A stretch of DNA of 64,000 nt, taken from positions 26,598,001 through 26,662,000 of the forward strand of contig NW_025963791.1 of assembly GCF_023055435.1 (NCBI RefSeq), given 5' to 3'. Below the pieces are notes generated by a model, which was not told the origin of the DNA, ran no database searches, and saw only the letters and a list, made by a program, of their open reading frames with translations. The DNA comes from Haliotis rufescens (lineage: Eukaryota). The position numbers were made by a program, and so were the translations under genes. This document shows, in pieces, positions 18,371 to 54,400 of this stretch (the stretch's first letter is position 1; every line of letters starts with the position of its first letter).

Positions 18371-19384
18371 ATCTTGTACACCACATATGTCGTGAGGGGC
18401 CAAGTCATGCTTGACGTGAGAGCCCAATGAAATTGATAATTGATACATAGATGTGTACGTCTTTGAATGGCTTTATAACACTCGCTCTTCAGAAGATGAA
18501 CATATAGCCTCAATGAGTGAAATTGGTTATACAGATACTTTGAACGTAAAGTGCACCATGACCCACATCTTCCACATGACAGAGAGTACGCTGGTCTAAT
18601 AAAGGTAACTAATAAAGGACCAATACAAATGTCACGTGAAAGGAACTTCCTTAACACATACGCATAGATACACCAGCACAGCATACGCCCATGCACGAAA
18701 CAAGCACCTGTCTTGGGACAGCTGAATGGCTGAGCCATAAAAAAAAGAATGCCTTTCTTTTCCAAGCCGGTTTAGACGTAAAGGCTTCGTTCTACAACTT
18801 ACTCCTTTCACGCAATGGTTACTTCAGACGGTGCTGTGGGAGTGTATCCAAATAAACCAACCCGCTACGTTAGCATTGATGATCACAAAACTATGTCAAG
18901 CAGCATAAATGAATATGCTCACGGAGTTCATGTGAATTGGCGTTTTATGGAGCTTATGTTGTACATCATTAGAAACAAACAGGAACATGGTGTCTGACTG
19001 CCGAAGTCGCCGCGTAGTTGTCAGCACCATTCAGCATTTCGTCCTTCAATACGGATGTTTTAGACATGACGACAGTTCCTCACCGGCATAATTACTATTC
19101 TATGAGCTGTGCTCGGGATTTTACGATACTTCATTTTTCTGGAATTGAGGAAAAAAACTTATGTTTTCAAGTATTCTCTCTTACAACCCCTACAGCATTT
19201 GTTCCTATAGAACAAGTCCATTTACAGCTCTAAACTTATGATACATTAAAGGTGTTTTTATAGAATGTACTAAACATTTGGAGATTTATTAAACCTTATA
19301 CATAACTTCATTGTGGAGACTACATGTTAATTAATGATTGACCCAAAGTGGGGTACATAGCCATACCCTATGACTGTCGCCAAG

Positions 19385-20095
19385 CGGGGATTCCAGTTCA
19401 GACTATATCACCAGTACACCACGATTGTCTCCAAGCGGGGACTACGCGACAGAGTATATCACCAGTACACCACGACTGTCTCCAAGTGGGGATTCCACGA
19501 CAGAGTATATCACAGTACACCACGACTGTCTCCAATGGGGATTCCACGACAGAGTATATCACCAGTACACCACGACTGTCTCCAATGGGGATTCCACGAC
19601 AGAGTATATCACCAGTACACCACGACTGTCTCCAATGGGGATTCCACGACAGAGTATATCACAGTACACCACGACTGTCTCCAATGGGGATTCCACGACA
19701 GAGTATATCACCAGTACACCACGACTGTCTCCAATGGGGATTCCACGACAGAGTATATCACCAGTACACCACGACTGTCTCCAATGGGGATTCCACGACA
19801 GAGTATATCACCAGTACACCACGACTGTCTCCAATGGGGATTCCACGACAGAGTATATCACCAGTACACCACGACTGTCTCCAATGGGGATTCCACGACA
19901 GAGTATATCACCAGTACACCACGATTGTCTCCAATGGGGATTCCACGACAGAGTATATCACCAGTACACCACGATTGTCTCCAATGGGGATTCCACGACA
20001 GAGTATATCACCAGTACACCACGATTGTCTCCAATGGGGATTCCACGACAGAGTATATCACCAGTACACCACGACTGTCTCCAATGGGGATTCCG
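19385..20095 (+). repeat. 50-bp minisatellite, ~14 copies
   Basis: Unit GGGGATTCCACGACAGAGTATATCACCAGTACACCACGACTGTCTCCAAT; two 49-bp variants; degenerate 5' units. Confidence 0.97.
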
Positions 20096-20599
20096 TCGTT
20101 GAATTTGTGTGATTAAAATATGACAATGTTCACGTGTGTTAGCTTGTCACAGAACTACCCAGCCAGCTCCATAACCTTGCAACTGGGTTATAACAACAAT
20201 ACCTATGTTTTTTTCGGGGAAAATTTTATTATAAACAAAAATCCACCTCATAATATCAACAAGATATGACATGTTCAAAATATTTTATGATAAATTTAAT
20301 GTATAAAACCATTGCAGGTATATTACACATTATACGTAGTAATCTGAAAGAGTTCTTATAAATGATTTAAACAATAAAAAAGACTAAAGGATTTCTTCCA
20401 TGTCAACACTGCCTTCGTATGATCTGTATCCCCTTCTACTGCATCTTCCGGCTTCCTGTTTCGCTGGGCCTGTTGCTTTTCTTTTGTTCTTTTTTACGTT
20501 TGTTCATTTTTTCATTAAGGCCTAATGTTCTTCATTTATTTGCATCATCCGCTGTTCTCAACATCCTCACAACCATCAACTCTGTTCGCTCCTCTTAGT

Positions 20600-27189: not shown

Positions 27190-28333
27190 TTAGACAATGG
27201 AGACACCTGTGTTTCCTGATACAGTGACACATACTGAGTTAATTTCAAACAGATCAATTACATCCTGCAAACCAGGTGTAAAATAGATAAATGGTTAAAA
27301 AATAAAAAAGATTTTTAGTTCTGCTTATTCTCAAGCTTAGTGTATATTTCAACACTTTAATATACTACAGAAACCAGATGGAATAACATGACATATCGAG
27401 TAACCATTTGGACCATAGATAGTGGCCCATTGTTTTTAATCTGGAGTCCTTCGCACTTCTTCAAGAGAATAATATTGTGGAATGAAGACCAATCAAATGG
27501 TATGAGAGTTGTGAACAGACAAACCAACGCCAAAAGCTCACTCTGATATTGTGATATTAAAGCTGAACCAAACCCAAAATAATTTTGTGTTGATGCATCA
27601 AACTCATAAACATAATGCATAAATGTACAAAAGACTTCATTACAGTATTCATTGATTTGCAGTCCACACAAACACGACCTACCTCTTGTTGACTCATAGT
27701 ACAATCAATAATGAATGAATCACAAGTCTGTACAGTCAGTGAAGAAAATACAGGAAAACAGAAAACTTGGAGGAACCAGGTGTTTGTCCCCACTGTTTGT
27801 CCTGCTGTCCTCCACATGTCCATTAACAAGGGTTAAATCCATTAATATGATTAACTTTACCCATGAAATTGAAATAAGAAGTCCATTGACAGACAGTAGA
27901 TAAGTTATATCCAAAAGAGGATACTACCAAAATACAAATATGTGTCAGGATGCTGAAATGATCTTTTGAAAACGAAAGGTCCTCACAATAATCAATAGAC
28001 ATTTACCCTACCGGTGTGTTAAGTATCCTCCAAAAAAAACAAACCCAAATGTACATTGCTACAAAACAACATACTTTTTTTCTAATTTTAAATTCATACA
28101 ACCCAAAACCATGTTTACCATTATCAAATAGTAGAGAGCCTGAGTCTCATAAACACTTTCAGTTCAGTAAGCTCATCTACATGATCTAACAAGTGTTCCT
28201 GCATCAAGAGTAAAATGTACTCGAATTTTGCCAAAAGACAAGTTCAGGCTAAAAAAGTTAAAAATTAGACACAGACTGCACTACACTATGACTACATGTG
28301 GATTTGAACACTGCCAAATCAGCAAAGCAGGAC

Positions 28334-28599
28334 AGTGAGTGAGTTGGGTTTAATGCCGCTTTTAACAGTATTCAAGTTTTTCACGGCGTTTCAGCTTAAT
28401 GTGGGAGGAAAGCCTGAAGTGATGCAGGTCTTAGACGTTTACCACTTCAGTGAAACCCACAACACGGGTTTGGTGCTGAAAAACCTAGAAACATAATCGG
28501 GGCGAAGCGGGATTAGAGCCCACAATCATAGGTTTCTGGCCCAAGTGGACACAACTCTGCACAGCGAATCACGGCAACTTAGACAACTGGGCCACCCGT
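28334..28599 (-). mobile_element. SINE family B, ~90 nt downstream of the TM-PY gene stop codon
   Basis: Reverse complement of family B. Confidence 0.88.
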
Positions 28600-28691
28600 G
28601 GCAATACAAGGACAAACACATAGGTTCTCCAAGTGGCCCTATGAAATCTCAGCAGATCAGTGATGTCTCCCAGCTCCGTAACAGACCATCA

Positions 28692-31600
28692 TCAAGGTCT
28701 GTCCTCTATGTAAGGCGGCAGGGGATCAGCTATGTCATCGTACTTGGGAGGCAGGACCATAATTGTTGGGTCAGATTCCGATCCTCCATCCGAGTCCAAG
28801 ATGACTCGAGGGTGACCAGGAGGGAGGGGCATCAGTACAAGGGAGTCGTAAGCGGGAGGCGGTTCACCACACCCTACCTGGGTCAGTTGATCTTGGGATG
28901 GGGTGTAGATAACTGAAATTGTAGTGATAGATTACTGACAATGATATCACGCTCAAGGAGTTATTATGGTCAAAGGGAAACAAACATGACAAGTTGATCA
29001 TGTTCATAAGGGGGGGGAGGGTCATGAACAACATTAAACTGATGAGACTCGGCAATAAGAAAATAACTTTTTATTGAGAATTGCAGAGCACAAGATCAGC
29101 TGCATGTTTGCGTAAAATATGCATTAAATAAACTGAAATATGCAAATCAAATTCTAGCATATCAAATACGCACCAAAATCTATAAATACGCTATTGAAAT
29201 AAAGTTAATGTGTATATTAGAACTATCAGATAAAATGTATTACAACTGTGAGATAAAATGATCGTGTATCAGGTGATCGCCAAATTCACTTACCGACAGT
29301 TACATTCCGAAAAGCTTCTGCGACAAACACTGATAGATGCCAATTGAAAAGCACATCGTGCCTAGTCAATGTACATGTTGTATCTTAATTAGTCGCTGAT
29401 TGGTAATTAAGACAATAGTGTATTTCTTACAATGCTAGGTTTTGTAAAAAAAAAAGGTTTTCCACAGAGGGAGCCATAAGCAGACGCAAACGGGTATACT
29501 ACTATTCACATAGTTTTAAATGATTTACAGGGATTGTTACAAAACAGGTTTTAAGTTAAATACCCAAATGCCAAGAAACAGGTGGGTAAAAACAATTTGA
29601 ATACCCTCTACAACTTGTGGATACCCAATCAAAATCAAACCCAAATGACTAAAAGCTTATCTATAGCTCTGGAATTGTTTAATTTTTCTACCTTCTTGAT
29701 TTTACAGTCTGTGGATCGATAAAACTCCTAAGATGTTAATGTAATCACAACTACTTATCGGTAAGTATCACTGGGATATGTTGTTAAATGGTGAAACAAA
29801 AAGCTTAGCAATGAGGGACCTGTCATTTATTTTGGGGGGTTGGGGTACACTGGACTTCGGACTGTATCATATTTTGAAACATTTTTTTCATGATCCTCCC
29901 CTCCCTATAATAAATAGCTAGTCCCAAAATAGTGAACCAGAATTTTAGAACTTTTTTATTTGAGAAAATAGAACTGTGTCATTTTTTCATACAAACACCT
30001 CCCTATAATCAATGGCCAGTCTCAAATGTTTTTCAGTGCACATGATGCTGTCATGGTCGATATATCTCTGCACTCAAACCAAAAAAAATGTTAACACATT
30101 AAACTATGGTTGAAACTTTAAAATTGTCAAAAGTATAATTTTCATTATCATATATACTACTTAGCATTTGCTGAGGATCACACCTCTGATTAAAGATAAT
30201 TTTGGTTCTTAGCAAATGTTAAGTACTAGTATATGCCATGTCAATATCATGCAACATGCAGGTAAAACTAGGTGTTTCATCATGTTCATCATTTGACAAG
30301 AAAGCAAATCATGTAGAAAGTTTTGTCTACCTGAACATGTATGAAAGCAAGCAGCTGGAGGATGCTGGAGTTCCCTCCCTTGAGACTTCCTCCACTTTCT
30401 TGATATAAACAACTTGCCCAGGATAATTGTACCAACGACAATTATCAAACCACAAACTGAAATAAAAATCTAGACTTAAAACTTCCTATTTAAACATCAA
30501 ATACAATAAAGGAAACATTTGATATGTCTCATTTTAGCATAATTATTATTTTGAATACATGGAAAACAATTGCTCAACATTATTGTTTTAAATATTTTTA
30601 ACACCTAGACATGTTTCTATGAAGTTGTTGTCATGTTTTATATCAATTACATAAAGTGTGGAATTGTGAAATCAAATGAAAAATTTAGAAATACACACCT
30701 GACAGAGGTGAAATTAGATTCCAAATTATCACCATGGTAACCATCATTATTTTGTTTATCCAGTTTCAGTGATTTTGCAGATGAAATACGTAATTTGGAC
30801 ATTTTCATGATTTTATATATCACCTATTAGACATTAAGAGAACTTAATCATGATATGCAAGAATATCGTATAACTTGATCTTCTGCACCTACTACAACTA
30901 CAAATAGTGTTAACCAGTTTACTGATTGTTTACTTGAAAAAGTGAATGACAGCTATGATCAAGCTAAGGTGGTTCTGACTACCTAAATTGTTTACATTTG
31001 TAAAGAGAGCTCTTGAAACAAACATAATAAAAGCGAAACAAGAACACGACCCAAACAAGTCAAAATATGTTTTTTTCAGTCTAACACAACAGCTTCATAT
31101 ACATGATATATCTATGGATTGTTTTAAATTGTAGGGGTCCTAAATTTTCTGTATCAGTATATAATTGGACTCAAGGGACCACAGGTTTCGACAAAGACCC
31201 CTTGACCATCAACTTTTATGCTTAATTTTGAACAATGTTTCTATTTATACTTTTGTAATGTTTAAACCAAACACAAAGAGCAAAATTAGTCTGGACTGTA
31301 TCATTGTCTTCAGGTTGCTGAGAATACATTTACTAAATATAGCGCCGATGACATGTATGGGTAAAAGAACAACATTAGATGTTTGTCTGTTGTTCAATGA
31401 TGCCCTCAGCATTATTCCAGTTATACGATGGCGGTCTGTAAATAATCACGTCAAGTCAAGACAAGACAATCCAGTGATTGACATCATGTGCACCGATCTA
31501 TTCAATTGCAACATGTTGACATGAATCAGCCAAGTCATGGAGTCACCCATCCCATTAGTCGCCTCCTACAACAAGTATGGGTTGATGAAGACCAATTCTA

Positions 31601-32127
31601 ACCTACATCATCAGGGGTCAGGGAATAGGGGTAGACTATGTAGGAAACATGAAACGAATGATGTTCCTGTTTTTGACAAGGCCAACTGTTGTAAATGAGT
31701 GAGTGTGGAAGAAATGGCTTCTAAATATTTAAGGCAAGAAAACATGGAATGGTCCAGTCCTATTGTTAAATTGAAATGGAAGTTAACGTCCTGTGGGTTG
31801 AGTGGGTTGAAGTTCAAAAAGGCAAAAGGCTTTCACACAGAATCAACGCTGAACATACATACCCATGCCCATGACACACAACATGATTGTTGCAGAATAC
31901 TTCAAGGAAATGGCTTCTGATATGAAGATACTTCCAAGAATGAACATAATGAAGCCAACACAAGCAGCACAGATGAATCCTATCACCATCTGCCGCCACA
32001 ACTTAGGTCCATCAGGATCCTCTCGTTTCAGGGCTAACACCCTCTGTTGTTCAACATAAGCTCGATAGGACCTGGCTTGAGGTCTTGGAGATACAGGTGA
32101 AGATTGTATGCTTTCCTCGCCTGCCAT
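28692..32127 (-). CDS. Two-TM membrane protein with three C-terminal PY motifs (TMEM252-like architecture), 203 aa, 3 coding exons
   Basis: Exons 32127-31863 (donor G|gtatgt), 30456-30331 (tttatttcag| ... CAG|gtagac), 28912-28692 (caatttcag| ... TGA); both introns phase 1, open frame. Protein: MAGEESIQ...MVIGFICAACVGFIMFILGSIFIS...IMLCVMGMVCGLIIVVGTIILGKLFISRKWRK...EPPPAYDSL...LPPKYDDIADPLPPYIEDRP*. Probable 5' UTR intron 33124-32244 (gtaagt...tattttcag). Confidence 0.85.
31381..31617 (-). mobile_element. SINE family C (intron of TM-PY gene)
   Basis: Diverged reverse-complement copy. Confidence 0.85.
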
Positions 32128-33124
32128 TTTGATTAATCACTGTATGTATCTACAACTGGAGTAGATGAAGTCTTGAGGCAGAATTATTTCCAAACAAATC
32201 TTCTCAGCTTTCTAGGTAGACCTCATCATCAAGAATGTAAATTCTGAAAATAAATTTTAAAAGTCATAATGCCAATTGAAGCATACTGCTCTAAAGAAGT
32301 TAAAGAACACCTGATTCTTTCATATCACTAAATCATGCCATTTGGGGTAACAAGATGTACCTAGGTACATCGGCTTCAAGTAAACCAATGCATACACTGC
32401 CATACAATGTTCAAAATTGGAATTTCTTCTAAAGTTCTCATGTTCCTAATTTTGGCCGTATCTTAACAGTGCAACAATGTAAAACTTAGCATTACTGTCT
32501 CTTCCATTTTATTGGCCCTGTTCTCAGTAACATACAAGTTCCTCTGCAAAGCCATACCATTAGGCCTAGTTAAAACTATATTAACATTAATTGGGAAATG
32601 TACTGACATTTGGTGCATACTTGGGGCCGAATATCAGCCTTTGTGCAGATCTAGACCAATCTTTGTGTTTAGAGTTAGATATATCATAATGTGTCTATTC
32701 AAAATCACATAACAACAAAATGTCATGGAACAAAATGGGCATATTGTTGACAAATTTCAATAAAAAGGACTTTTCTTTGAATACGTTTCGGAAACCATGT
32801 TGTTAGTTGCAAAGCAAGGTCAAGAAGAGAACATTAATAGAAATTAATATTTCAACTGATTCATAATATATGCATAGCATTTCCGAACTCGATCGAGATA
32901 CCTCGAAACATATATGTCTCCATCCCATTGATGATTCATGTGTGTCAACAACGAATAGACAGAGGCCAAAGCAGAGGGATGTTTTATAACATTTCATTTG
33001 GCCTAGTTCTAGAATCTATTTATTTTTTCCCATTTCTCGTCGACCATCCATGACAAATCACCATGCAACATGCCCCTTGGAACAAACGATATGAAAAAAA
33101 GATCAATGGAGCAACAGAACTTAC

Positions 33125-33478
33125 TCTGCTAATGCCCGGTTTCACTCAGCGATTCTCGTGTGCTAATTTTCCTTGCCACCATCTTGTAAACATTTTCGCA
33201 ACGCCACCTGTCAGTGAACGCAGCACGAAACATAATATAGGTTGGGTGTATATGGGGAAATCAAGACAAACGACTCACGATGACAAATATGCTGAACTTA
33301 ATATAACTGAAATAACACACTATCAAATATATTCAGTGAATAATGTCAACATTACGTTGATTTTAAACCCACATTTAATTTTTGTTTTGCAGGTGCGCGT
33401 TGTGGTTTGAGGATAAAACGCAGGATTTGATGACGTCACGTTTGTTTTTACGCAATAATAGACAGTTTGGATAACAAA
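33125..33478. promoter_or_regulatory. Probable bidirectional promoter of WBP2 and the TM-PY gene, with perfect CRE
   Basis: Locally CpG-rich; TGACGTCA at 33431-33438, ~40 bp before the WBP2 ATG; minus-strand consensus donor GTAAGT at 33124-33119 marks the end of a likely first non-coding exon of the divergent gene. Confidence 0.6.
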
Positions 33479-36400
33479 ATGTCGCTCAACACTGCTCATG
33501 CTCACGGCGGAGTGCTTATATTTGCTGGGGAAAGGTAACATTTCAAACGTCAACACGTTTCTAGTTTTTAGAATGTGTCTCTGAATATACATTGCTATAA
33601 CCAGATTATTAGAGGATTAGTAAACTGCTTGTAATTAGGCTAACACCATACTTGATCAGATATCTATCTAGAAAAATCGCAGTTCCTGTTCGTATTCAGT
33701 GACAGATGTTGTTGACAAGTCATCACCACGCGAGTTGAATCTAGTGTCTGTATCGCCTTCACATTGGGACTCCAAAGTGAATGATACAGAATCATGAGAA
33801 TGCCAGTTATAAACACGTATTATTTTGTGTTATTACAGTCAAAATGACTTCTCACAAGTGAACTTGGCTCGGGAACAGGTAAAAAGAGCCACACATCTGA
33901 GCCATAGACCGTAGACACCCTAGTCAAAGGGTCCACATCAAATAGTCCAAAGGTCCACAAACCCAAGTCAAAACAGCCACACCAAAGAGTCAAAATGGCC
34001 ACCTAAAAAAAAGCGTAAATATTAAGCCTAAATAGTGCTAGTTTTTAGTTCCACCATATCTGTCACTGTCAGACATACCATGTGTTAGGCAGCCAGTTGT
34101 TAGACACTTAACTAAAAATGGTAAGTGGGCTCATGTGTTGCTGTAATGGGCTAGTCCAGTCTAGCTAGGCTGATTAAAACTACTACTAATTAGGATTACT
34201 GACCAGTGAGAAAGGGATTAAAGGAACAGAGTAACTACAAGATCTCGAGAAAAGGAATTGAGGTGTATAATGGACACTTGTATCTGATGAGTCGTAAGAC
34301 GCAAAGTAAAAAATATTTGAGTTTTAACAAGCTTCTTACCTATTCATTTTTGAGCAATTTCACACCTACATTTGTATGGAAACGTATTTGTGCCAGTCTA
34401 AAATATTTTTATCATCTATGTAGATAATACTTACATTTACATAGATGATACTTACATCTATGTAGATAATACTTACATTTACACAGATGATACTTACATC
34501 CATGTAGACAATACTTACATTTACATAGATGATACTTACATCTACGTAGATAATACTTACATTTACATAGATGATACTTACATCTACGTAGATAATACTT
34601 ACATTTACATAGATGATACTTACATCTATGTAGATGATACAGTACTTTGATCTCCTTATGTGATATTATGATCATACAGATCGTAACTCAGACAGTAATA
34701 TTATACTGTCCTGTGAAGTCCCTAACTGGATACTAGTTTATACAAACATCTATATTTTAAATAAAGTTGACTACTTAATTACTGTTAATTTAATTAAATG
34801 TTGGTTGTTTATTTTCATTTGGCCTTTTCCGTATTTTTACAACACATTGAGATCATTTCAAATTGTCAAACGTCAGAGCTTAAATAAAAACACAAACTGC
34901 AGAATTGTACCTTCACTGCTTCATAGGATGATGACGAGGGTTTGATATAGTTTTTATAGTTTGAGTGATTCTCACCCTTCATATTCATGTTTTACCTCTT
35001 AAACCTAATTTCCATAATGGAGAAATCATGAGAATCAACATATTTGCGTGATTTCTCCGGCTTTAACATGTTTAACGATCTTATGATGTTATGTAATTTT
35101 GATAAAATATTGTATAATGACCTATAATTGTTTGTTTGTTTGTAGTTTGGAGAACATTTTGTGCTCTCCTCTTTATATTATGGTTGTAACTTGTAAGACT
35201 GTGGCATGTGGCATTCTCCAGTGACTTCGACACATTGAAATGAAGATTAACTTCATGTACTGCTTAGATAGTACCTCAATAAAGAAATGTCAAGGCAGAA
35301 AGTCAAACAAATCGGTCATATTAATTATTCCAGAGGTTATATATAACTGACCCGGAACAAGTGTCCATAATATAAAATATTCTTACCTAAGTTGATAATA
35401 GATGATACTTTCTTCTAAATAGATAATCATATTATGTACGTAGTTGAAAGTATCCTCACATAGATGTGAGCATTATCATCTACATAGATTATAGTATCAT
35501 CTACGTAGATTATAGTATCATCTACATCATGTACATAGATGTAAGTATCCTCTATGTAGATGATACTCTCTTTTTTAGACTTTGGCACTAACTTGCTTCC
35601 ATACATTTGAGACTTCCTAATTAAGAGGGAGCACGGGTGGCCCAGTCGTCTAAGGCGCCGCGATTCGCCGTGCAGAGTTGCGTCCCTTGGGCACGCCAGA
35701 AACCTATGATTGTGGGTTCGAATCCCGGTTCGCCCCAATTATGTTTCTAGGTTTGTCAGCACCATACCCGTGCTCGTGGGTTTCACCGAAGTGGTAAACG
35801 TCTGAGACCTGCATCAGTTCGGGCTTTCCTCCCACATTAAGCTGACTCGCCGCGATATAACTGGAATACTGTTAAAAGCGGCGTTAAACCCAACTCACTC
35901 ACTCCTAATTAAGAATTTAACAAAAGAATAATTTACCTATTTATATTGAGTTCTTACCATTCAAGATATGAACTCGTGCATTGCATAAAGATGGCAGGAT
36001 TGCAACGAGTCACATATGTTATGTCACGTAAACACAAGACATGAAAAAACAACTTGCAAGCAGGGAAGAGACAAAATATTAAGCGATATCTCAAATGTTT
36101 TACATTCAGAGTATCAACATCTTCCTTCTGGCTGCTGACTACAAATGCCAATATTGATAACAAACAGGGCACAGAATTTATTCATACCAGTTGGTACCAG
36201 GTTTTATGATAAGTTTTGTGATGAACAAATGTGGAGTATTTATTCGCTAGTCATGCTAGTGTTGCATTTAATGTTACCATATTCGACGTAATATGCGCCC
36301 AGGGCGCTCTCAACATTAGAAATAAGGGGCTCTTATTAAAATATTATTTTGGTGAAAAAAACAGAGTTGAAAGATAAATTTCGTGGTTTATGCTGACAGC

Positions 36401-39400
36401 ATGAAATGTTTATATATGACAGATATATTTTTCCAGAATTTAATTGCCCATAATTAAGGGTGCATGTAACACAGAGTGCATATTATACGTGAATAAATAA
36501 GTCTTATGTCCATTGATCAATCGGAAGGGGTGCTAATTGGGATTGTTCACTAGCCAATATATAAGAAAATATCGCCGTGGGCGCATATGTCGAATACGGT
36601 AATTACTTTTGAAAATTTATAATTTTAGTGTTGATATTGATTTTTATGACTCATGTCATTTGTATTGTTAGTACTATAAATAAACATATGAGTAACAGTT
36701 TGTATTATTCTGTTTTTACTCCTCACTGTCTGACAAATGAGTGCTAAAAGGGCTGAGTCCTCTCAACCATTGGTAACAGGCATTAGTAATTAGTGAACCA
36801 TTACTAAAACTCTCTGACAAGCGGGATGACAGACAGATGGGAGGACACCAGATTTTTCCAGGAAAGTAGGCTCGTTAAGATTGGCATGGAAAGTGGAGGT
36901 TCGAACAGGCATCAACAGTCACAACAAGGAACGATGACTTAGATTTTTAAAGTTTTAGCCAGCCCTGTTCAAGGAAGCCTCCCAAGTTACTTTGCCAGTG
37001 AGACGTCTGCACAAGGGCAAGGTGCTACAATACGTAATTAAATTTTCGTTATCTTCATTGAAATTCCTTCCTTCTGATTAGCTGAATTGGTCACGTGTTA
37101 TTGCATTCATTTCCCAATGACTGTAAAAAAAATATGCCACGCCCACCGAGGCGCACTACTTTTATTACTGCGGAATGTCGGGGAATCCCAATATTACAGT
37201 CAAGGGAATCCCCTTTCTGCTCACGTGTATCATCATGCACAGGACATTTAGCGACTTTCATGCATATTCATTGTCTAAACTACCCTTTGAAACCGAAGGC
37301 CGAGAATGAATGAAACAGTAAATGTGCAGGCTCGCTCGCCTGTTTTTTCCCGCTCGCCTCGGTTCAACTTTCATGTCTTCGGGTTTCATTTCTGACTAGC
37401 ATTTTTCCTACTGTGTTACTGTAACCAAGGAAGTAATGTTTGAATCTGGCGGTAACTGACCATTTTATTTGAAACAGCTGCCTTCTCCCGGACATATTTC
37501 TTCTGGTTCATTACAGTCTGACTGTTGCAGTTCTCTTCGCCTCTTGCCTTAATTGACAGGTCCAATGAACATTGTTTTGATCCTACTCTCCGTTGATTGC
37601 AAACTTTTGTTGGCACATCGGTGTTTCGATTCATACCTCAATGAACCGAAAAGAATACCCAGTCAACCCTTAATTGAAGACAGCCACCTGTTCTCAGCAA
37701 GCTCAAGGGTGGAAACCTCAGTCCAGCTGACTTTCTGTTCATCAGTTCACCTAACATGAAATCAGACAACTGAAACAAACTCTGATAGTGCTGCTCAAGA
37801 GAAGATGTGCTTTGTGATGCTGATGCGTGCCTACTGTTAATGATAGTTGTTATGAAATGAATAAAGATATAATACACGCAAAATGTTTACTAATATACTT
37901 ATAATGTCGCCAACCTTTGTTTGTGTCCCTTTTTGACATTTTGTGTGGCCATAGTTCTCTTCATCCTACGGCTCGTATAAACCCTAAGAAAGAATACATT
38001 GAACCACATATATACCCTTGTGATACTGCTGCAACTTATATTGTCTGAGGTTGGTGAAAATCTCTAGGATTCTCCCAAACTGTAGCTGGTAATAGTTGTA
38101 ACATGAGTAATGTTATGTCACAGACAGTTGTTGCCAAGTTGGATTTAGTTGAGACTTACCCTCTCAACATCATCAAAATATTAAATATATCTTCAAAAAC
38201 AATTATTTCTTCGACCATGTTTACAATAATAAGTGTAATGATCATTTCAGCAAGGGTTCATTCATCGTCAACACCTAAGGGGCTTTCTAATCTCTGTGGA
38301 TACAAATCACAAGAAGTATTGACTCGTATCATATTGTAACAATTGAAAATTTGGTAGACACTATCATCAGTATTACCATTGGTTTGAAAGGAAGAGCAGG
38401 ATTACTTAAAAGTTTAAATTTATTAACATTGCTTTCTGCCTGTTTTCAGAATCCTCATCTATTATGATGGGATTGAAATGTCCTATGATGGTCCCAATGG
38501 GATGCCTCACTTTAAGGGGAAGAAGAAAGGGAGTGTCTACCTGACTACTCATAGGGTAAGGTTCTAAATCTTTTCTTTTTCAAAGTTTCTAAAGTCGTAA
38601 TGTTGACCTTTGAAAAGGATCTTTGCACTATTAATATATTCCTGTGTAGTTTTTGTGTACATATTTATTATGACCGACATCATGGGTTGTGGTGTAAATA
38701 GTGTTGGGCAAGGATGAGTGAGTGAGTATGGTTTTACGCTGCTTTTAGCAATATCATGGCAGGGGACACCAGAAATGGGCTTCACACATTGTACCCATGT
38801 CGGGAATCGAACCCGGGTCTTCGGCATGACAAGCAAACGCTTTTACCACTAGGCTACCCGACCGCCCCTGGGCAAGGATGAAGGCTGTGCTGAGTCTGCT
38901 GTGTACACATCAGACATTTGAATTATTGTATCAGAGTCTCTGCACAATGTTTGTTTTGTTTGTTGTTATACCACACTCTGCAGTATTCCAGTTTCTGATG
39001 GTAGCCTGTTAATTATCAAGTTTGTATCAAACAAAGCATTGTTTGTTTTAAGAGCAATGTTTGCAGCTTTGTAGCATGTGGCATTTTGGTAAGGAAAGAG
39101 AATTTTTTACAGGTTTCATCTTAATATCGTCATAATCGGTTTAAAATCCCTTTGTAATTTATATAAACTTGTCAGGTCTTAACATGTATGAAACATAAAT
39201 CAAATATGATTTAGTTGCTGTAAATATTAGAAATTCATCAGGACGCTTTAATTTAGGATGTAGTGGGAGATGTGATAATAATGTCTGTCTTGTGACAGGT
39301 GATTTTCAACTGCACTGACCCAAAAGACCAGATGCAGTCCTTCAGCATGCCCTTCTTGAACATGCGAGACCTGGAGCTGGAACAACCCATCTTTGGCGCC

Positions 39401-42400
39401 AACTACATCAAGGGGCGGATCCTGGCCGAGCAGGGAGGTAGGCCGATTCTAGGGGGTACAAATGATGGAACAATCAATGCATTGCATCCGACCATGACTG
39501 ATGGTAATATATGGATGACAGGTTCAAATATCAATAGATTATAGTATCAATGGTGATGATAGACATGAGAAAGGAAATACAGTACTGTTTATCATTGCCG
39601 TTTGCAATATCCTTGTAACTAATGTCCCTTGTTTGAAGATTGAAGAGATGTGTGAGTAGCCATTGAGAATATGTTCACCTGTTTATCTCAGACAATAATC
39701 ATAGGTACCACCCTTAAATACCCTTACAACTTTTGCTGCTGAATAATGTTAATAATACAAGTGAGTCTACATCATGGGAAGGAGAGTAATCTCATCATAC
39801 TGTTGCAATAGTTATGCAACTATTGCAGGATATTGCCAAAGGAAGAATGCTCCCTAGCACAATCATAAGAGTTCCTTTGACTTTCCACATCCCGTGAGGA
39901 TTCCGGGTTAGAACTGGTCCTAGCAACCAATGCTTGTCAGGCGACTTAAGGATCAGGTGGTCACTCGCTGACTGGGCTGATTGCATGTCATTAATCTCAT
40001 TAAGATCAGATCTTAGTTCTTGCTACCGCTAAACACTGATTTGAAGACATCCCATTACGGGTCACGTCAGAAGACCTTTCATCCAACTAATCAGAGCGTC
40101 ACTTACCAGATCATGAAATGTGTTTTCTAATCATGCAACTGGGAAAAATGCAACACAGGGTATTTACAGGCTTTATGACTGAATCCATACAAACTTGGCC
40201 ATCTATTAGCCATTCCAGAATGTTCTTTTGTTCAGTTTTCAAAATTTTTAATCAGAATTTGTCAAAATATGTTTTGAAACTAGTGCCGCAAAGCCGAAAA
40301 AGCTGCCTTCTGACTGGCTAATGTCGACTTCTTGTGACCCATAATGGGATGTCATCAGATCTTTGTTTACGGTATCAAGAACTAAGGTCTGATTTTAATG
40401 AGATTGGTTATACATGGTCTTAAGTACCAGAGGAAGGGAGATAACTCTAAATGTAACTTGTTGAAAATGACAGATGCCACTTAAAAGGAAAAAAAATTGC
40501 CAACAGATATGGAAGATAATAGTTAAGAGAAGGTTGCATGAGTTATAAATTGTTCAGTGTTTCCACATGTTCCACATGTTCACTAGATTTATTCACATGG
40601 TGTTGTACTTGCAGGCAACTGGACAGGTGAAGCCAGGTACAAGATGTACTTCACTCATGGTGGAGCAATAGAGTTTGGTCAAGCCATGATGAAAGCTGGG
40701 CAGCTGGGTTGGTGTTCTTTTCTTCATTACATGTCTTCTGTTTTAGGTTTTGTCGCAAATGGTTTGCAGATTTAAAAACATTATTAAGATTATTAACTAC
40801 TGACAAGTCTGTGTTACCATGCATTGGGCATGTTGGGACGCCTATACTGAAATTTAAATGACACTATGTTTTTGATATCCTGAAGACTCATTTTGTAACT
40901 CATGTACCTATATTATACTGTGATGAATTTTGTTTATCCAGAAAACAGCCAAGCATCCTAGTAATTATGTTCAACACTGTATTAAAATATGTCCCCTGAA
41001 ATTATGAAATTGTGTTAAATTTTTTATTTTTTGTTGCATTGCATATTTTAGATTTTATAGTATTGGGATTAAATTTGTTTCAGCCTCACGTAATAGGCCA
41101 CCTCAGCCACCACCCTACACTCCACCCATGGGCAATGTGTACCAGGCCCCGCCCCCAGCCTATGCCCCGCCCCACACACCACACTATGACTGGGTCCCAT
41201 ATCAAACATTCCCAACAGCTCCACCACGTAAGTACTGCTCACTGCTCTACAGGCACTGTTACTGAAGTGAAATGTTGTTATCATTTTATGTACATAATAC
41301 TATGAGGGGGATATTTGGTATTTGTGAGATTCACATTCCTCAAATAAGATTTATACGTACAGAAATGAAAAATCCAATTACCCAGTGATTATTCACATTT
41401 TAATGCAGAACTATAGAGACCCAAGCTCTAATATTACAAGGGACATAATTCTTCCAGTCAGTATTTAATTAGCAATATTTGTAAATTTACCAGTAAACTG
41501 TTATGCTTTTGTGCGAGATTATTGTCTCATTGTCAAGAAGCATTGGGGTAGCCAAGCCGTTAAAGTACTGCCTCGTCATACCAAGGCCTTGATTCTTTTC
41601 TCCACATGTGAGGTTTTTGTTTTCCCGGAATTTTGTCTTTAAGAGGCGTAACCCCAAACTTACTCTCTAAATAACAAGAGTCACAATAGTCGCTGACTTT
41701 CTGTATTTGACATGCGCGTTTGACTAGACAATATGTAAATGCTACCTTATGTTATTCTATGACATTGAAAATCTGTTGATAATACTATGGTGGTACTTGA
41801 CATTTCATGTAGCCTGTGAAGATCCAGGGTATAGTTGTTCTCTAAGCAACCCATGTTTGTTGTAAGAGACGGCTTATGGGATCAGGTGGTCAGGCTTGAT
41901 GACTTGGTTGGTGCATGTCATCATATCCCAACTGTGTAAATCAATGGTCATGATGTCAATCACTGGATTGTCTGGTCCAGGATCAATTATTTACAGACTG
42001 CTGGAATATTGCTGAGTGTGGTGTTAAACAAAAAACAAATGATGATGATGATGATGATGATGATTCAAATTCTTTTACAAATACCTGTTACTGTTGTTAG
42101 CTCTGACCATGCTGATTATGATTGATGTAAAGGAGATATTACTTGACTGATTATTCCATCCTTGGTTTGTGACTACAGAGGATGGTGTGTACATGTCGGA
42201 AGCTCCCCCACCGTACCCTGGAGTGGATCCCAACGCTCCGCCCTACCCCCCACCTCAGGCTAACGGCCATGGTATGTATAACATGCTGTTGTGTGTGTGT
42301 AGTGAGTCACTGTGACTGTGTACACTATAAACTGTAATAGAGGTTTCCTTCAGTTAAGTAACAAGAGTGTCAGTTGTTCTGGGTGGTCAGTTGGAGCACT

Positions 42401-42773
42401 ATATTCATTCTATAATAACAGGAAGGTCCGAAACATTTAACAGTATGATAGACTGCTGGTTATTAATTGTGTTGTGGTTTGGTTTGCTTGTTTAAAGTTT
42501 GTTTCATGGTCATGTGACCAGCCTCTTATCCATTTTAAGGCTGTATAGATCATGTCAACGTCACATTAACAAATTATGGCAAGATGAACCAGTTACAAAT
42601 TTAACTAATGATGTGAAGTATCCTAGTGACTAATGTCTTGTGTTTTTGTTGCAGATGCGAAGGCCCGGGAGGCGGCTGGCAGTGCCTACTACAGCCCAGC
42701 CAATCCTCACAATGTCTACATGCCCTCGGACCCTCCCCCCTCATATGACGAGGCATCAAAGAAAACCAACTAG
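33479..42773 (+). CDS. WBP2: WW domain-binding protein 2 (GRAM domain + PPxY-rich tail), 249 aa, 7 exons
   Basis: Exons 33479-33534, 38450-38555, 39299-39437, 40615-40707, 41084-41227, 42179-42271, 42655-42773; all GT-AG, phase-consistent, 750 nt. Family motifs [84 protein letters not shown]. Confidence 0.96.
34365..35612. mobile_element. Foldback-like element with inverted ends and subterminal 21-bp tandem repeats
   Basis: Left CATTTGTATGGAAACGTATTTGTGCCAGTCTA followed by 21/42-bp repeats (34411-34640) containing palindromic ATCTACGTAGAT; mirrored at 35390-35612 by related repeats and TAGACTTTGGCACTAACTTGCTTCCATACATTTG. Confidence 0.6.
35627..35902 (+). mobile_element. SINE family B (WBP2 intron 1)
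   Basis: 12-bp TSD TCCTAATTAAGA; CpGs intact. Confidence 0.93.
38718..38868 (-). mobile_element. SINE family A (WBP2 intron 2)
   Basis: 13-bp TSD TGGGCAAGGATGA. Confidence 0.92.
41813..42038 (+). mobile_element. SINE family C (WBP2 intron 5), followed by (ATG)n
   Basis: Colinear, CpG-decayed; partial copy also at ~39890-39990. Confidence 0.87.
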
Positions 42774-46285: not shown

Positions 46286-48058
46286 AAGCATGGTTCACAT
46301 TCTACATGAAAACCAAGCTGGATTTAGACGAAAATTACTCAACGATCGATAATATGTTTACTTTACAAGGAATGGTTAGAAAATACCTGTCAAAATCACC
46401 TGGAGGGAGATTTTACTGATTCTTTATCAACTCTTCAAAGGTTTTTTATGGTGTTCTCATTTGTGGCACAGACATATTCATGGAAACATTTTGACAGTTC
46501 CACGTGATATGTATTCCAAGCTAAAGTCATGTGTACGCACAGACAGTGGCATCACAGATTTTGTCACGTGTTGCACTGGTACCCGTCAGGGTTGTGTGGT
46601 CAGCCCAATACATTTCTAATTTTATACCAACGAGTTTATTGCAGACATAAGCGCTTCTCAGTGCCGAGGAATATGTATATCAGAAGACGCACCAAACATC
46701 TGTTCTATATTTTATGCTGACATCGCAAACTAAGCAGATTCAGCTGGAAGGTTATAGCAACACGTTGACAGTGTTAGTTACTTTTGTGATAAATGGGGTT
46801 TAAGTTTAAAATTTGGAAAAACAAAGATAGTCGTTTTCGGGAAAGGAGGACCAATTCGAAGCTACGTAAAATAGTATTACAGAGGAATTCAAATAAGCAC
46901 CGTGTCATGCTATAAATATTTAGGATCGTGCTTTACTCCGAAACTGGTCTGGACATAAAGCCTACTAGTTCTTTCAAGTCAAGCAGAAACCGTATGTCTA
47001 TCAATCTACAAACTACACTACAGTTGCGGGGTCTACCTGTTACAACGGGATCAAAACTTTTCGACAGCATGGTACTTCCAAGTTTAACATATGGAGCAGA
47101 TATCTGGGGATGTAACACCATAGATATTGTGGAAAAGGTACAGGCGAAATATTTCCAGAGAATACTTTACCGAATTCGGCCAGTTCTGGGGGAATGTGGA
47201 CGACATACATTGTATGCAAGTTGTCTTCTGAAGTGTTTTAAATATTGGACAAATGTAATCAACATGAATAATATAGTAGACTACCAAAACACATATATGA
47301 TGTTGTATGGTCCAGACGAAGCAGGAAGAACATCATGGGTCACTTATATTCAGAACATTCTATTTCAATATGGTTTCGGATATGCATGGATTTTCCAGGA
47401 TGCAGGCAACATCAATACATTCTTATCTGAATTCAAGCAACGGGTGATAACTCAGAAACACGGGGGTGGCATTCCTCCATTTGTTCAAACTCTAAACTGT
47501 TAGCCCATTCTACTTTCAAGTCAGCTTTCAACATGAAAACTTATCTCCCTCAAATCGATTAAATCAAAGTCAGACAAGCGCTCACAAAGTTCAGGTGCTC
47601 ATGCCATAATCTCGTGATTGAAGTGGACATCGAAATATTGAACAGCAAGATCGAGTTTGTGCCTACGTTTTGGAAATAACATTAATTAAAGAAAATGATT
47701 TTTGACTGGAATGCGAAGCTTATTCAGAGCTTAGAAGTAAAAAGCTAGATACTAAAAATAATGTTAGCCTTACGCATAAAATAATCATTGAATAATTGTA
47801 CTCATCATGTAAATTTGCTGATATAGCTTTGTCAAAATGTGTATATTTTGCATCTAAATGCCTCTTGGCAATGCAGTAACGACTTACATATCATTAACGC
47901 CCATTTTTATTTATAATAGTATGATATGTAATTTCCAATAGTGCAATCAACCATATGTATGTACTGTGTCTTTACATACACTACTTTGTACAATTTATTG
48001 TGTATGTACATGTATGTTCAATGGGCCAATAGCTTGAAACTTCATGAATAAATCAACT
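46285..48058 (+). mobile_element. Decayed 5'-truncated non-LTR retrotransposon (CR1/L2-group LINE ORF2 remnant) nested in a SINE
   Basis: Frameshifted RT motifs QAGFR-NYSTIDNMFTL, GTRQGCVVSP, FYAD, KTKIVVF, YKYLG, LFDSMVLPSLTYGADIWG, VLGECGR, TKFRCSCHNLVIE; AATAAA near the 3' end; host SINE continues at 48061-48083. Confidence 0.88.
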
Positions 48059-51400: not shown

Positions 51401-54400
51401 AACCTCGGCAATGTCGGACAAATCCATTTTATGAACAGGGGGGGTTAAGTTTAGTATTTCCCGGATATTCTCACAATTGTACGTTTTCTCCCAAAACGGA
51501 TTGTCATATCTCTCTTACTTGTGTGTGAGATCTCTCTTACTTGTGTGTGAGATCTCTCTTACTTGTGTGTGAGATCTCTCTTACTTGTGTGTGAGATCAT
51601 TCAGTCATGTTTATCTACTTTGCCCAGCTACTTCTATGGGGAATAACTCACTAAACACTTCCCACTTGAAAAAAAACATTGTCCCATTTACAACGTAGTC
51701 AAGTTGCGAGCTCATGTTCAAATCTCCAGAAATGATGTCATGATAGAACAATGTTCTATTGTGAAATAAACCATGCTTGGTTCTTCATTGTTCTTTGGGA
51801 TTTATGGCATAGCTATCTTATATAAGGTGATATATTCGTTGCTAGTGTTATATCTATGTGTATAAGTAAGGATGGAGGTTTCAATCAACCCATGTTTTGT
51901 AATTTGCAAAAAAATCCTTTACATATTTACAGGATTATGAACAACCTGGACTGGTACAGAAATGTGAACATCGTAGAATTTTTGTCAAAAACTGGTCGAC
52001 ATTTTAGGATGGGGCAGATGCTGTCCAGACACAGGTACATGGTTGTCTTGGTTATGGTACTAAATCTGTGAAAAAGCAAAAAATGCAAAGTACCTGGTGT
52101 TGATATAAAAGTAATGATGAATATAACAGCAAATAACATGGACAGGCTACTTCTGTTTATACACAGTGCTTTATTGATGTAATGATAATTATCTGCCTTG
52201 GGCCATTGTTTGATTGTTTGATACGCAACATGCACAGACCTTTTGATTTTGATACAACTATTACTGTCAAGGAGATTTTTATATCACAAATCATACTGAA
52301 GTGTTCAGATGAGAGTCAGTTTTATCAATAGCCAATTAGAAATTACAACAGGCAGGGAACTTTAGTGGATTTGGTTGAGTGAATCATATTGTGTTATCAT
52401 CTTTATTATTTCAGTGTAAAGAGCAGACTTAAGAGTGAAGAAGGAATGAGTTTCACAGAGTTTACGTATCAAATATTTCAGTCCTATGACTGGCTCCACT
52501 TGTACAGACATCACCAGTGTGCAATACAGGTACATCTGTCACATAGCAGTACAGCCAGCATGTGCTACATGAAGACCATGATAGAACCCCATTGACCCTT
52601 GTTCCCTGTCATAGGAGACTTAATAGGAATTTAATGTCTATTTGCAAATGTGATTTTGTTTGTTTGTTGTTTAACGCTGCACTCAGCAATTATCCAGCTA
52701 TATGACGGCGGTTTAAATAATTAAGTCTGGATCAGACAATCCAGTGACTGACATCATGAGCATCGATCCAAGCAATTGGGATACAATGACATGCATCAAC
52801 CAAGTCAGCAAGCCTGACCACCCGATCCCGTTAGTCGCCTCTTACAACAAGCATAGTCGCCTTTTACGGCAAGCATGCGTTGCTGAGGACCTATTCTACC
52901 CTGGATCTTCACGTGTCTTGCTGATGTGAATAAATAGTCCAGAGATGTGACCTACTTTGATAATTCATGAATATATATGTCTTTCTTCAATTGGATAAAT
53001 TCAAGCCACCGAGTCTGACCGTCTGTCTGATCATTATTTAGTCGCATGAGAAGCATGGGTTGTTTGGTACCTATATTCTTATCCAGAATCACACCTACCA
53101 TGGAAAGGACGAGGTGTATCAGCCAGGGTTGAAACAGAAGAACCCATGACAGTGATACCAGAATATGATATGATTATTTCATATCAGTATTCACACTGGA
53201 ATTGCTTTAAGAAAACCTGTTCTCCTGTTGACAGATTGGAGGAAACGACCAGCTGGGGAACATGACGGCAGGATACGAGCTGATATCTCGGCTCATGGAT
53301 AAACCAGTTTTTGGTAACTAGCTTTTCATTACATTGGTACAGTTTTTATTGGGTTCCAATGTTATATTTACGTTTATAATCTCGGACCAGATGAAAGAAG
53401 TGCAATGTTGATATCTAACGTGTGATAGGTCTTCTGTGCGATTGCCATGATCATGTGTATACAGAAGGCCATCGGAGCTTATGTCCCTCAGCTGAAGTCC
53501 TGTGTTTTCTGAAAGTTTGTTCAAGGCATCAAAATTTGAGTTTCACGTGGCGTTTAAAAAAACAACAAATGAACAAATCGTCTCAAAAACTTGAAGACCA
53601 GTGGCCTGAAACTTGGTGTGTGAGATGGCCACCTTATGTAGTAGTTCTTTAAATGTTTACCTAGATTTGACCATCGCACTTAAACCATACTGAAAGCTGA
53701 AACTACTTACGACCTTTACTCGGCCATTTTGTTTCAAACTGTAATAATAGTTGGTATATGTGTAGTTGGTTTATGTGTAGTTGGTATATATATAGTTGGT
53801 ATATGTGTAGTTGGTTTATGTGTAGTTGGTATATGTGTAGTTGGTATATGTGTAGTTGGTATATGTATAGTTGGTATATGTGTAGTTGGTATATGTATAG
53901 TTGGTATATGTGTAGTTGGTATATATGTGTAGTTCGTATATGTGTAGTTGGTATATGTGTAGTTTGTATATGTGTAGTTGGTATATGTGTAGTTGATATA
54001 TGTGTAGTTGGTATATGTGTAGTTGGTATATGTGTAGTTGGTATATGTATAGTTGGTATATGTGTAGTTGGTATATGTGAAGTTGGTATATGTGTAGTTG
54101 GTATATGTATAGTTGGTATATGTGTAGTTGGTATATGTGTAGTTTGTATATGTATTGTTGGTATATGTATAGTTGGTATATGTGTAGTTGGTATATGTAT
54201 AGTTGGTATATGTGTAGTTGGTATATGTGTAGTTGGTATATGTATAGTTGGTATATGTGTAGTTTGTATATGTGTAGTTGGTATATGTGTAGTTGGTATA
54301 TGTGTAGTTGGTCTATGTGTAGTTTGTATATGTATTGTTGGTATATGTGTAGTTGGTATATGTGTAGTTGGTATATGTATAGTTGGTATATGTGTAGTTG

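Follow-up and report, generated by a model that had tools for sequence, protein, structure and literature searches.

In a 64,000-nucleotide stretch of the Haliotis rufescens genome (contig NW_025963791.1, positions 26,598,001 to 26,662,000 of the forward strand), a minus-strand gene that lies head-to-head with WBP2 encodes a conserved protein of 203 amino acids (aa), which is predicted to cross the membrane twice and carries three PY motifs (PPxY or LPxY) in its C-terminal tail. The probable role of this protein is that of a membrane adaptor through which WW-HECT ligases of the NEDD4 family are recruited and activated. The gene is present in databases yet unstudied, and the family to which it belongs is undescribed. 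The whole stretch is termed the window, and all coordinates count from its first letter unless another contig is named.

The membrane-protein gene and its transcripts

The original prediction, made from the letters of the window alone, was that three minus-strand coding exons are spliced into a 203-aa hairpin membrane protein whose tail has the motifs PPAY, PPKY and LPPY. The coding pieces 31863-32127, 30331-30456 and 28692-28912 (minus strand) are bordered by GT donors and AG acceptors and join into an open reading frame (ORF) of 203 aa, with the three motifs starting at residues 149, 185 and 195. The translation is identical to the RefSeq proteins XP_046352767.1 and XP_071108318.1 (H. rufescens and H. 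cracherodii). The gene, LOC124132739 in RefSeq, is thus not hidden, as had been claimed, because the identical model is already carried there as 'uncharacterized'. Its parts are as follows:

33125..33456, minus strand: exon 1 (5′ untranslated region, UTR), with the donor GTAAGT after 33125; the upstream end is uncertain (contigs stop at 33172, 33233, 33379 or 33456)
31863..32243, minus strand: exon 2, with the ATG at 32127, the N-terminal region, the first transmembrane segment (TM1, about 31918-31992) and the first half of the second (TM2)
30331..30456, minus strand: exon 3, with the remainder of TM2, a basic stop-transfer patch and the CFHTCS box (30332-30349)
28692..28912, minus strand: coding part of exon 4, with the three-PY tail and the stop codon
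28848..28859, minus strand: PY1, PPAY, residues 149-152, of the extended form with a hydrophobic residue at Y+3
28740..28751, minus strand: PY2, PPKY, residues 185-188, PPxY in 33 of 33 aligned sequences
28710..28721, minus strand: PY3, LPPY, residues 195-198, 10 residues after PY2

The splicing was analyzed with contigs from four runs of four studies (X1, X2, X3 and X8), which are presumed to be RNA and unstranded, and which reveal neither transcription start nor strand. In all four runs contigs skip the introns at the predicted borders, so that the junctions 31863/30456 and 30331/28912 are borne out. One contig of run X3 spans the junctions of all three coding exons, one of run X1 links exons 1, 2 and 3, and in runs X2 and X8 the gap between exon 2 and exon 4 measures 126 letters, which is the size of exon 3. 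The 5′-UTR donor at 33125 is spliced to 32243. The longest possible 5′ UTR (33125-33456 plus 32128-32243) has 448 nt and contains seven upstream ATGs. At the other end, contigs run on from exon 4 to at least 27600 as 3′ UTR. A high-copy interspersed repeat is present there at about 28330-28600, where the contig depth is very high, and a second copy lies at about 35620-35910.

Queries with exon 4 and with exon 2 each matched their own locus only, and no second copy was found in the abalone genome; by these matches the gene appears to be single-copy. No publication naming any of six orthologue gene identifiers was found in a search that did not cover supplements and most of the subscription literature, so that expression tables may hold the gene.

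A conserved, predicted hairpin with a cluster of PY motifs

A profile search for relatives gave 45 matches, 33 of which were aligned. Near-duplicate cephalopod rows (P0005 and P0007), fragments or read-throughs (P0052, P0053, P0059-P0061 and P0063-P0065), P0062, which lacks exon 3 and keeps the PY motifs, and P0036 (see below) were left out. When the 33-row profile was run against 1.84 billion representative proteins, 64 matches were obtained. Among ten matches that were looked up, five could be named (Capitella, Owenia, Lingula, Lineus and Tubulanus), and the other distant matches were mostly single-exon pieces. Orthologues are found in gastropods, bivalves, cephalopods, annelids, one brachiopod and nemerteans. 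Each of the five non-molluscan orthologues carries three to four [LP]PxY motifs. Of 26 read-through ORFs, 25 have a phase-1 intron within the second helix, as does an oyster contig. In a tree of 25 rows the molluscs form one supported clade; the branches outside the molluscs are long, and no reliance can be placed on their order.

The proposed two-TM hairpin agrees with two hydrophobic segments (Kyte-Doolittle peaks of 2.5 and 2.7) and with an AlphaFold2 model in which residues 40-75 and 78-113 form helices (predicted local distance difference test, pLDDT, of 85-95), followed by a tail of low confidence. Lysines and arginines number four before, one between and five after the two helices. These basic residues at the outer ends of the hairpin suggest that both termini are cytosolic. 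Eight residues are invariant in the 33 molluscan rows: G58, G65, A72, C84, G87, G91, C125 and C129.

The PY cluster is unlikely to be a matter of tail composition, since none of 5000 tail shuffles yielded three [LP]PxY motifs. The conservation of the motifs, a lack of which would have counted against the original prediction, was confirmed: PPxY is present at both PY1 and PY2 in all 33 molluscan sequences, and PY3 is LPxY in 23 of them and IPxY in the other 10. The mean column conservation was 0.91 for PY1, 0.96 for PY2 and 0.75 for PY3, compared with 0.35 for the stretch that separates PY1 from PY2. In ENaC, the Nedd4-binding form of the motif is PPxYxxL (PMC2582799). A hydrophobic residue at Y+3 was found at PY1 in 30 of the 33 rows, against a tail background of 23%, and at PY3 in 2 of 33.

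Two further conserved elements were observed. The CFHTCS region has a mean conservation of 0.88; both cysteines of the box are kept in the 33 molluscan rows, and the box is absent from the five non-molluscan orthologues. It may be palmitoylated or serve as a binding site. An N-terminal motif (32056-32085, minus strand) keeps R15, Y21 and Y24 in 28-30 of the 33 rows, and R15 also aligns in the non-molluscan orthologues.

Possible relationship to TMEM252, TMEM174 and similar proteins

It had been proposed that TM1 and the three-PY layout recall vertebrate TMEM252. The TMEM252 profile, PF15664, was neither among the 18 families listed for seven members, nor among the best 25 of 64 for the 33 members, nor matched by the five non-molluscan proteins, and in the same sets no Pfam family was above cut-off among the rows shown. 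No full-length vertebrate match was seen in the search of 1.84 billion proteins, in which the named full-length matches were lophotrochozoan only among those checked. A search of the abalone genome with PF15664 gave no candidate; the controls were equally silent, so this search is uninformative. A Foldseek search of PDB for structural relatives had no match at E ≤ 0.001 and gave generic helical matches only, and the family profile reached a best E of 0.34 against PDB sequences.

Language-model features gave a different type of signal. In the ESM Atlas, the top rows for the abalone protein were unnamed arthropod clusters (176-255 aa, scores of 0.92-0.93), one of which has PF15664 in 10% of its members; these clusters are possible counterparts that the profile search did not reach. 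The next rows were TMEM139, TMEM174 and TMEM61, at 0.81-0.87. Chordate TMEM252 scored 0.86 over residues 35-135, that is, over the hairpin, and as the top predicted-structure row it had template-modelling scores of 0.40/0.44, both results lying below the bars of the tool. Membership in TMEM252 is not upheld by the profile, and what is left of it is a language-model resemblance, which may reflect a distant kinship. Literature searches for TMEM252, TMEM171 or TMEM174 together with PPxY or NEDD4 returned unrelated papers only.

The similarity to TMEM174 bears on another explanation, namely that the protein serves a transporter, channel or receptor as an accessory subunit, and that its PY motifs do no more than regulate how it and the bound partner are turned over, as in a TMEM174-like protein. 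The hairpin, with a mean conservation of 0.74, is the largest conserved block of the protein, as would suit such a subunit, and the TMEM174 profile PF15029 gave matches to two of the five non-molluscan orthologues (18.1 and 13.8 bits; E 0.002 in Lingula and E 0.048 in Lineus). Moreover, endocytosis of NPT2A is reported to require TMEM174, via its C-terminal part (PMC13252570). However, both matches are under the 27-bit cut-off and stand alongside other weak matches, the profile is not listed for molluscan members, and the TMEM174 study names neither NEDD4 nor ubiquitin and calls the C-terminus extracellular (PMC13252570). Three PY motifs across four phyla would also exceed what self-turnover usually needs. 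We consider an accessory subunit unlikely.

Proposed function as an adaptor of WW-HECT ligases

Of the features of small membrane proteins that bring NEDD4-family ligases to their cargo, the abalone protein has predicted membrane integration with the PY motifs in a tail predicted to be cytosolic, at least two conserved PY motifs, and WW-HECT ligases in the same genome; PY-dependent binding and activation of a ligase and the delivery of a separate cargo are predicted. At four loci of the abalone genome, WW exons are followed downstream by HECT exons of the same strand:

C1, 88.42-88.43 Mb: WW and HECT exons
C101, 1.78-1.81 Mb: WW and HECT exons
C13, 37.19-37.21 Mb: WW and HECT exons
C2, 20.57-20.62 Mb: WW and HECT exons

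Clustered PY motifs that are tethered to a membrane activate these ligases, and soluble ones do so poorly (PMC5892558); NDFIP2 requires several of its PY motifs (PMC12720080). By analogy, the clustered and membrane-tethered motifs of the abalone protein would bind several WW domains, and this binding would release the auto-inhibition of the ligase. The helix face formed by G58, G65, A72, C84 and G87xxxG91, together with the juxtamembrane region, could select a membrane cargo or partner, which would then be ubiquitinated and routed to endosomes. The NEDD4 adaptor put forward in the original prediction is retained as the best inference.

Several points weigh against an adaptor. The AlphaFold2 model has a predicted template-modelling score of 0.42. 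A hydrophobic residue at Y+3 is present at PY2 in only 22 of the 33 molluscan rows, and 10 of them have the IPxY variant at PY3. P0036 (Tegillarca) has a gap at TM1 and lacks PY2 and PY3, a deficit that is likely a gene-model error. The function of C. elegans PYT-1 is reported to be unchanged in the absence of two WW-HECT ligases (10.1101/2025.08.13.670147). PY motifs, including those of WBP2 itself, also bind YAP/TAZ, WWOX and WWC3 (PMC13133773), and because of this a PY motif alone does not name its partner. A PY-bearing membrane protein can also be a plain substrate instead of an adaptor. No experiments on any family member were found in the literature.

The second function that had been suggested was Yorkie tethering. 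In a wider form of this proposal, the protein would hold Yorkie/YAP, or WW tandems of the KIBRA/MAGI type, at the membrane and take part in the Hippo pathway, either in opposition to WBP2 or alongside it. PY2 and PY3 are 10 residues apart in 31 of the 33 molluscan rows, a fixed spacing that might fit WW domains in tandem; YAP and TAZ are bound by the PY motifs of WBP2 (PMC13133773); and additional WW loci occur in the genome, with no nearby HECT exon listed for them. On the other hand, the spacing ranges from 7 to 10 in the non-molluscan orthologues, and in the literature cited here small membrane proteins that carry PY clusters are ligase adaptors. We therefore give a Yorkie tether very little chance of being the function of this family.

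The WBP2 neighbour and the head-to-head interval

The neighbouring gene and the interval between the two genes comprise the following features:

33479..42773, plus strand: WBP2 gene, with a GRAM domain (PF02893) and four PPxY motifs
33479-33534, 38450-38555, 39299-39437, 40615-40707, 41084-41227, 42179-42271 and 42655-42773, plus strand: WBP2 coding exons (seven-exon model)
33125..33478, no strand: head-to-head promoter interval, 354 bp from the minus-strand donor to the WBP2 ATG (33479)
33431..33438, no strand: palindromic site TGACGTCA, found four times in the window (0.88 expected)

The seven-exon model of WBP2 equals the stored protein P0121 at 249 of 249 residues and corresponds to LOC124132737 (XP_046352766.1); its exon 1-2 junction is present in contigs. 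Both the several PPxY motifs ascribed to WBP2 and the head-to-head layout, with about 350 bp between the genes, held true. The distance from ATG to ATG is 1352 bp. WBP2 contigs start at 33461, 33472 or 33475, and in run X1 the contigs of the two genes stop 4 bases apart. Both start regions lie inside 33125-33478, and no other splice joint was found in the interval; a plus-strand acceptor considered near 33392 has no supporting joint in the contigs. The ratio of observed to expected CpG of the interval is 1.08 (window median, 0.55; eight other bins are equal or higher). The palindrome is a putative site of the CRE/ATF type. When the WBP2 GRAM region (residues 1-135) and residues 8-145 of the membrane protein were co-folded without alignments, the score was 0.00 against a mark of 0.34, which is no evidence either way.

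Likely conservation of the linkage

Record numbering tracks genome position, roughly only. We used it, together with a shared contig or chromosome size, as a proxy for linkage in the 14 species with records of both genes; the WBP2 records cover molluscs other than cephalopods. Accessions are consecutive in seven species (H. rufescens, H. cracherodii, H. rubra, Lottia gigantea, Biomphalaria pfeifferi, B. glabrata and Saccostrea echinata) and 3-9 apart in four (Crassostrea gigas, Batillaria, H. asinina and Physella). In Bulinus (4.5 Mb) and Lymnaea (0.5 Mb), an equal size of the contig is the only sign of linkage. C. angulata, with the same chromosome size and numbers 1058 apart, is uninformative, as is a second S. 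echinata copy 251 apart. By this proxy, the linkage is kept in 13 of the 14 species.

The proposed check of synteny with WBP2 in other molluscs thus points to a likely adjacency in gastropods and oysters. The orientation was read in Haliotis alone. Metagenome scans for gene orientation gave first nothing and then one short oyster contig. The oyster contig L003 extends 1094 bp upstream of the membrane-gene ATG without a WBP2 exon, to be compared with the 1352 bp between the ATGs in abalone. An antisense overlap between N-terminally extended oyster ORFs was no better than in shuffles.

These results suggest that the membrane gene has likely been kept beside WBP2 for a long time in snails and oysters. 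The linkage is most simply explained by the interlocking of two promoters within 354 bp; a shared pathway is possible.

Expression and possible co-regulation

A stronger proposal is that the linkage is selected and that the two genes form a co-regulated pair of WW ligands on one bidirectional promoter. The short, CpG-rich interval with its palindrome, the close approach of the X1 contigs and the likely adjacency in gastropods and oysters speak for it, and conserved gene pairs are enriched for the 5′-5′ orientation and have a modestly higher co-expression (r of 0.30 versus 0.21; PMC3514665). In a meta-analysis of abalone heat stress, WBP2 is up in eight of nine data sets, with log2 fold changes of 0.5-2.4 (PMC12070547). 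LOC124132739, in contrast, has no occurrence in the three supplementary files of that study and is absent from its 74-gene core list, in which another uncharacterized gene does appear (PMC12070547). LOC124132739 was thus significant in fewer than seven of the nine data sets or was filtered out. The heat-stress data lean against tight co-regulation and are compatible with a weaker coupling. Taken together, we regard a selected, co-regulated pair as rather unlikely.

Heat-shock elements number 17 in the window (17.0 expected), with none in 33125-33478. One perfect element is present at 40213-40225, in a WBP2 intron, which is at chance level for the window. A literature search for WBP2 with 'bidirectional promoter' returned one review only, on another topic by its listing, and among the matches listed for WBP2 with mollusc terms there was no publication on the pair.

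A wider scheme would join these observations. The two genes would have been a module of WW ligands since the split of snails and oysters, in which one promoter serves the membrane-bound three-PY protein and the soluble four-PY WBP2, and both jointly determine the place and strength of action of NEDD4-family ligases and, via WBP2, of Yorkie; the balance would shift when heat strongly induces WBP2 and not its partner. The membrane protein would perhaps represent the lophotrochozoans in a hidden family of bilaterians, together with TMEM252, TMEM174 and the unnamed arthropod proteins. Taken as a whole, this scheme is decidedly improbable.

Other features of the window

53700-55700: tandem array of about 2 kb, built from units of some 15 bp, with a GC skew of up to 0.98, followed by an array of longer units
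19340-20110 and 34400-34650: smaller tandem arrays
46916-47503, plus strand: open frame of 195 codons, by eye like a remnant of a retroelement without long terminal repeats

Comparison with known systems

The locus is no new kind of system. Its interest lies in a protein family without a name, found in molluscs, annelids, brachiopods and nemerteans, for which a clear mechanism can be put to the test. Because PY adaptors escape homology to the known ones, a new family of them points to cargo as yet unknown. With its likely old linkage to WBP2, the gene provides a compact case in which to ask whether it is function or the interlocking of promoters that makes head-to-head pairs persist. There is also a practical side, as few abalone genes respond to heat stress as consistently as WBP2, one of the top 15, which are significant in eight of the nine data sets (PMC12070547).

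By language-model features, the named clusters nearest to the abalone protein are TMEM252 (PF15664), TMEM174, TMEM61, TMEM51 and TMEM139; TMEM252 is set apart by the Pfam scans, in which its profile is unmatched. The gene pair can be likened to the CAMPs, for example Hspe1-Hspd1, which are arranged 5′-5′ at less than 1 kb and have kept their linkage for long (PMC3514665). It differs from them in that its linkage is seen within molluscs, and its orientation in Haliotis, only; WBP2 is not mentioned in the main text of that study (PMC3514665).

The closest resemblance is to the PY adaptors. Like the abalone protein, Ndfip1/Ndfip2, Commissureless (Comm), PRRG4, TMEM127 and PYT-1 are small membrane proteins with two to three clustered PPxY/LPxY motifs in a predicted cytosolic tail. 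In the Ndfips the PY motifs are N-terminal and there are three helices, and Comm and PRRG4 have a single helix, unlike the two helices and C-terminal PY tail of the abalone protein. No known adaptor gave a sequence match above cut-off, Comm (PF15957) reaching E 0.1 only. Comm, Ndfip, PRRG4 and PYT-1 themselves have little common sequence outside the PY motifs (10.1101/2025.08.13.670147). It is likely that this undescribed lophotrochozoan family works like the known PY adaptors, among which PYT-1, as the abalone protein, has three C-terminal PY motifs (10.1101/2025.08.13.670147).

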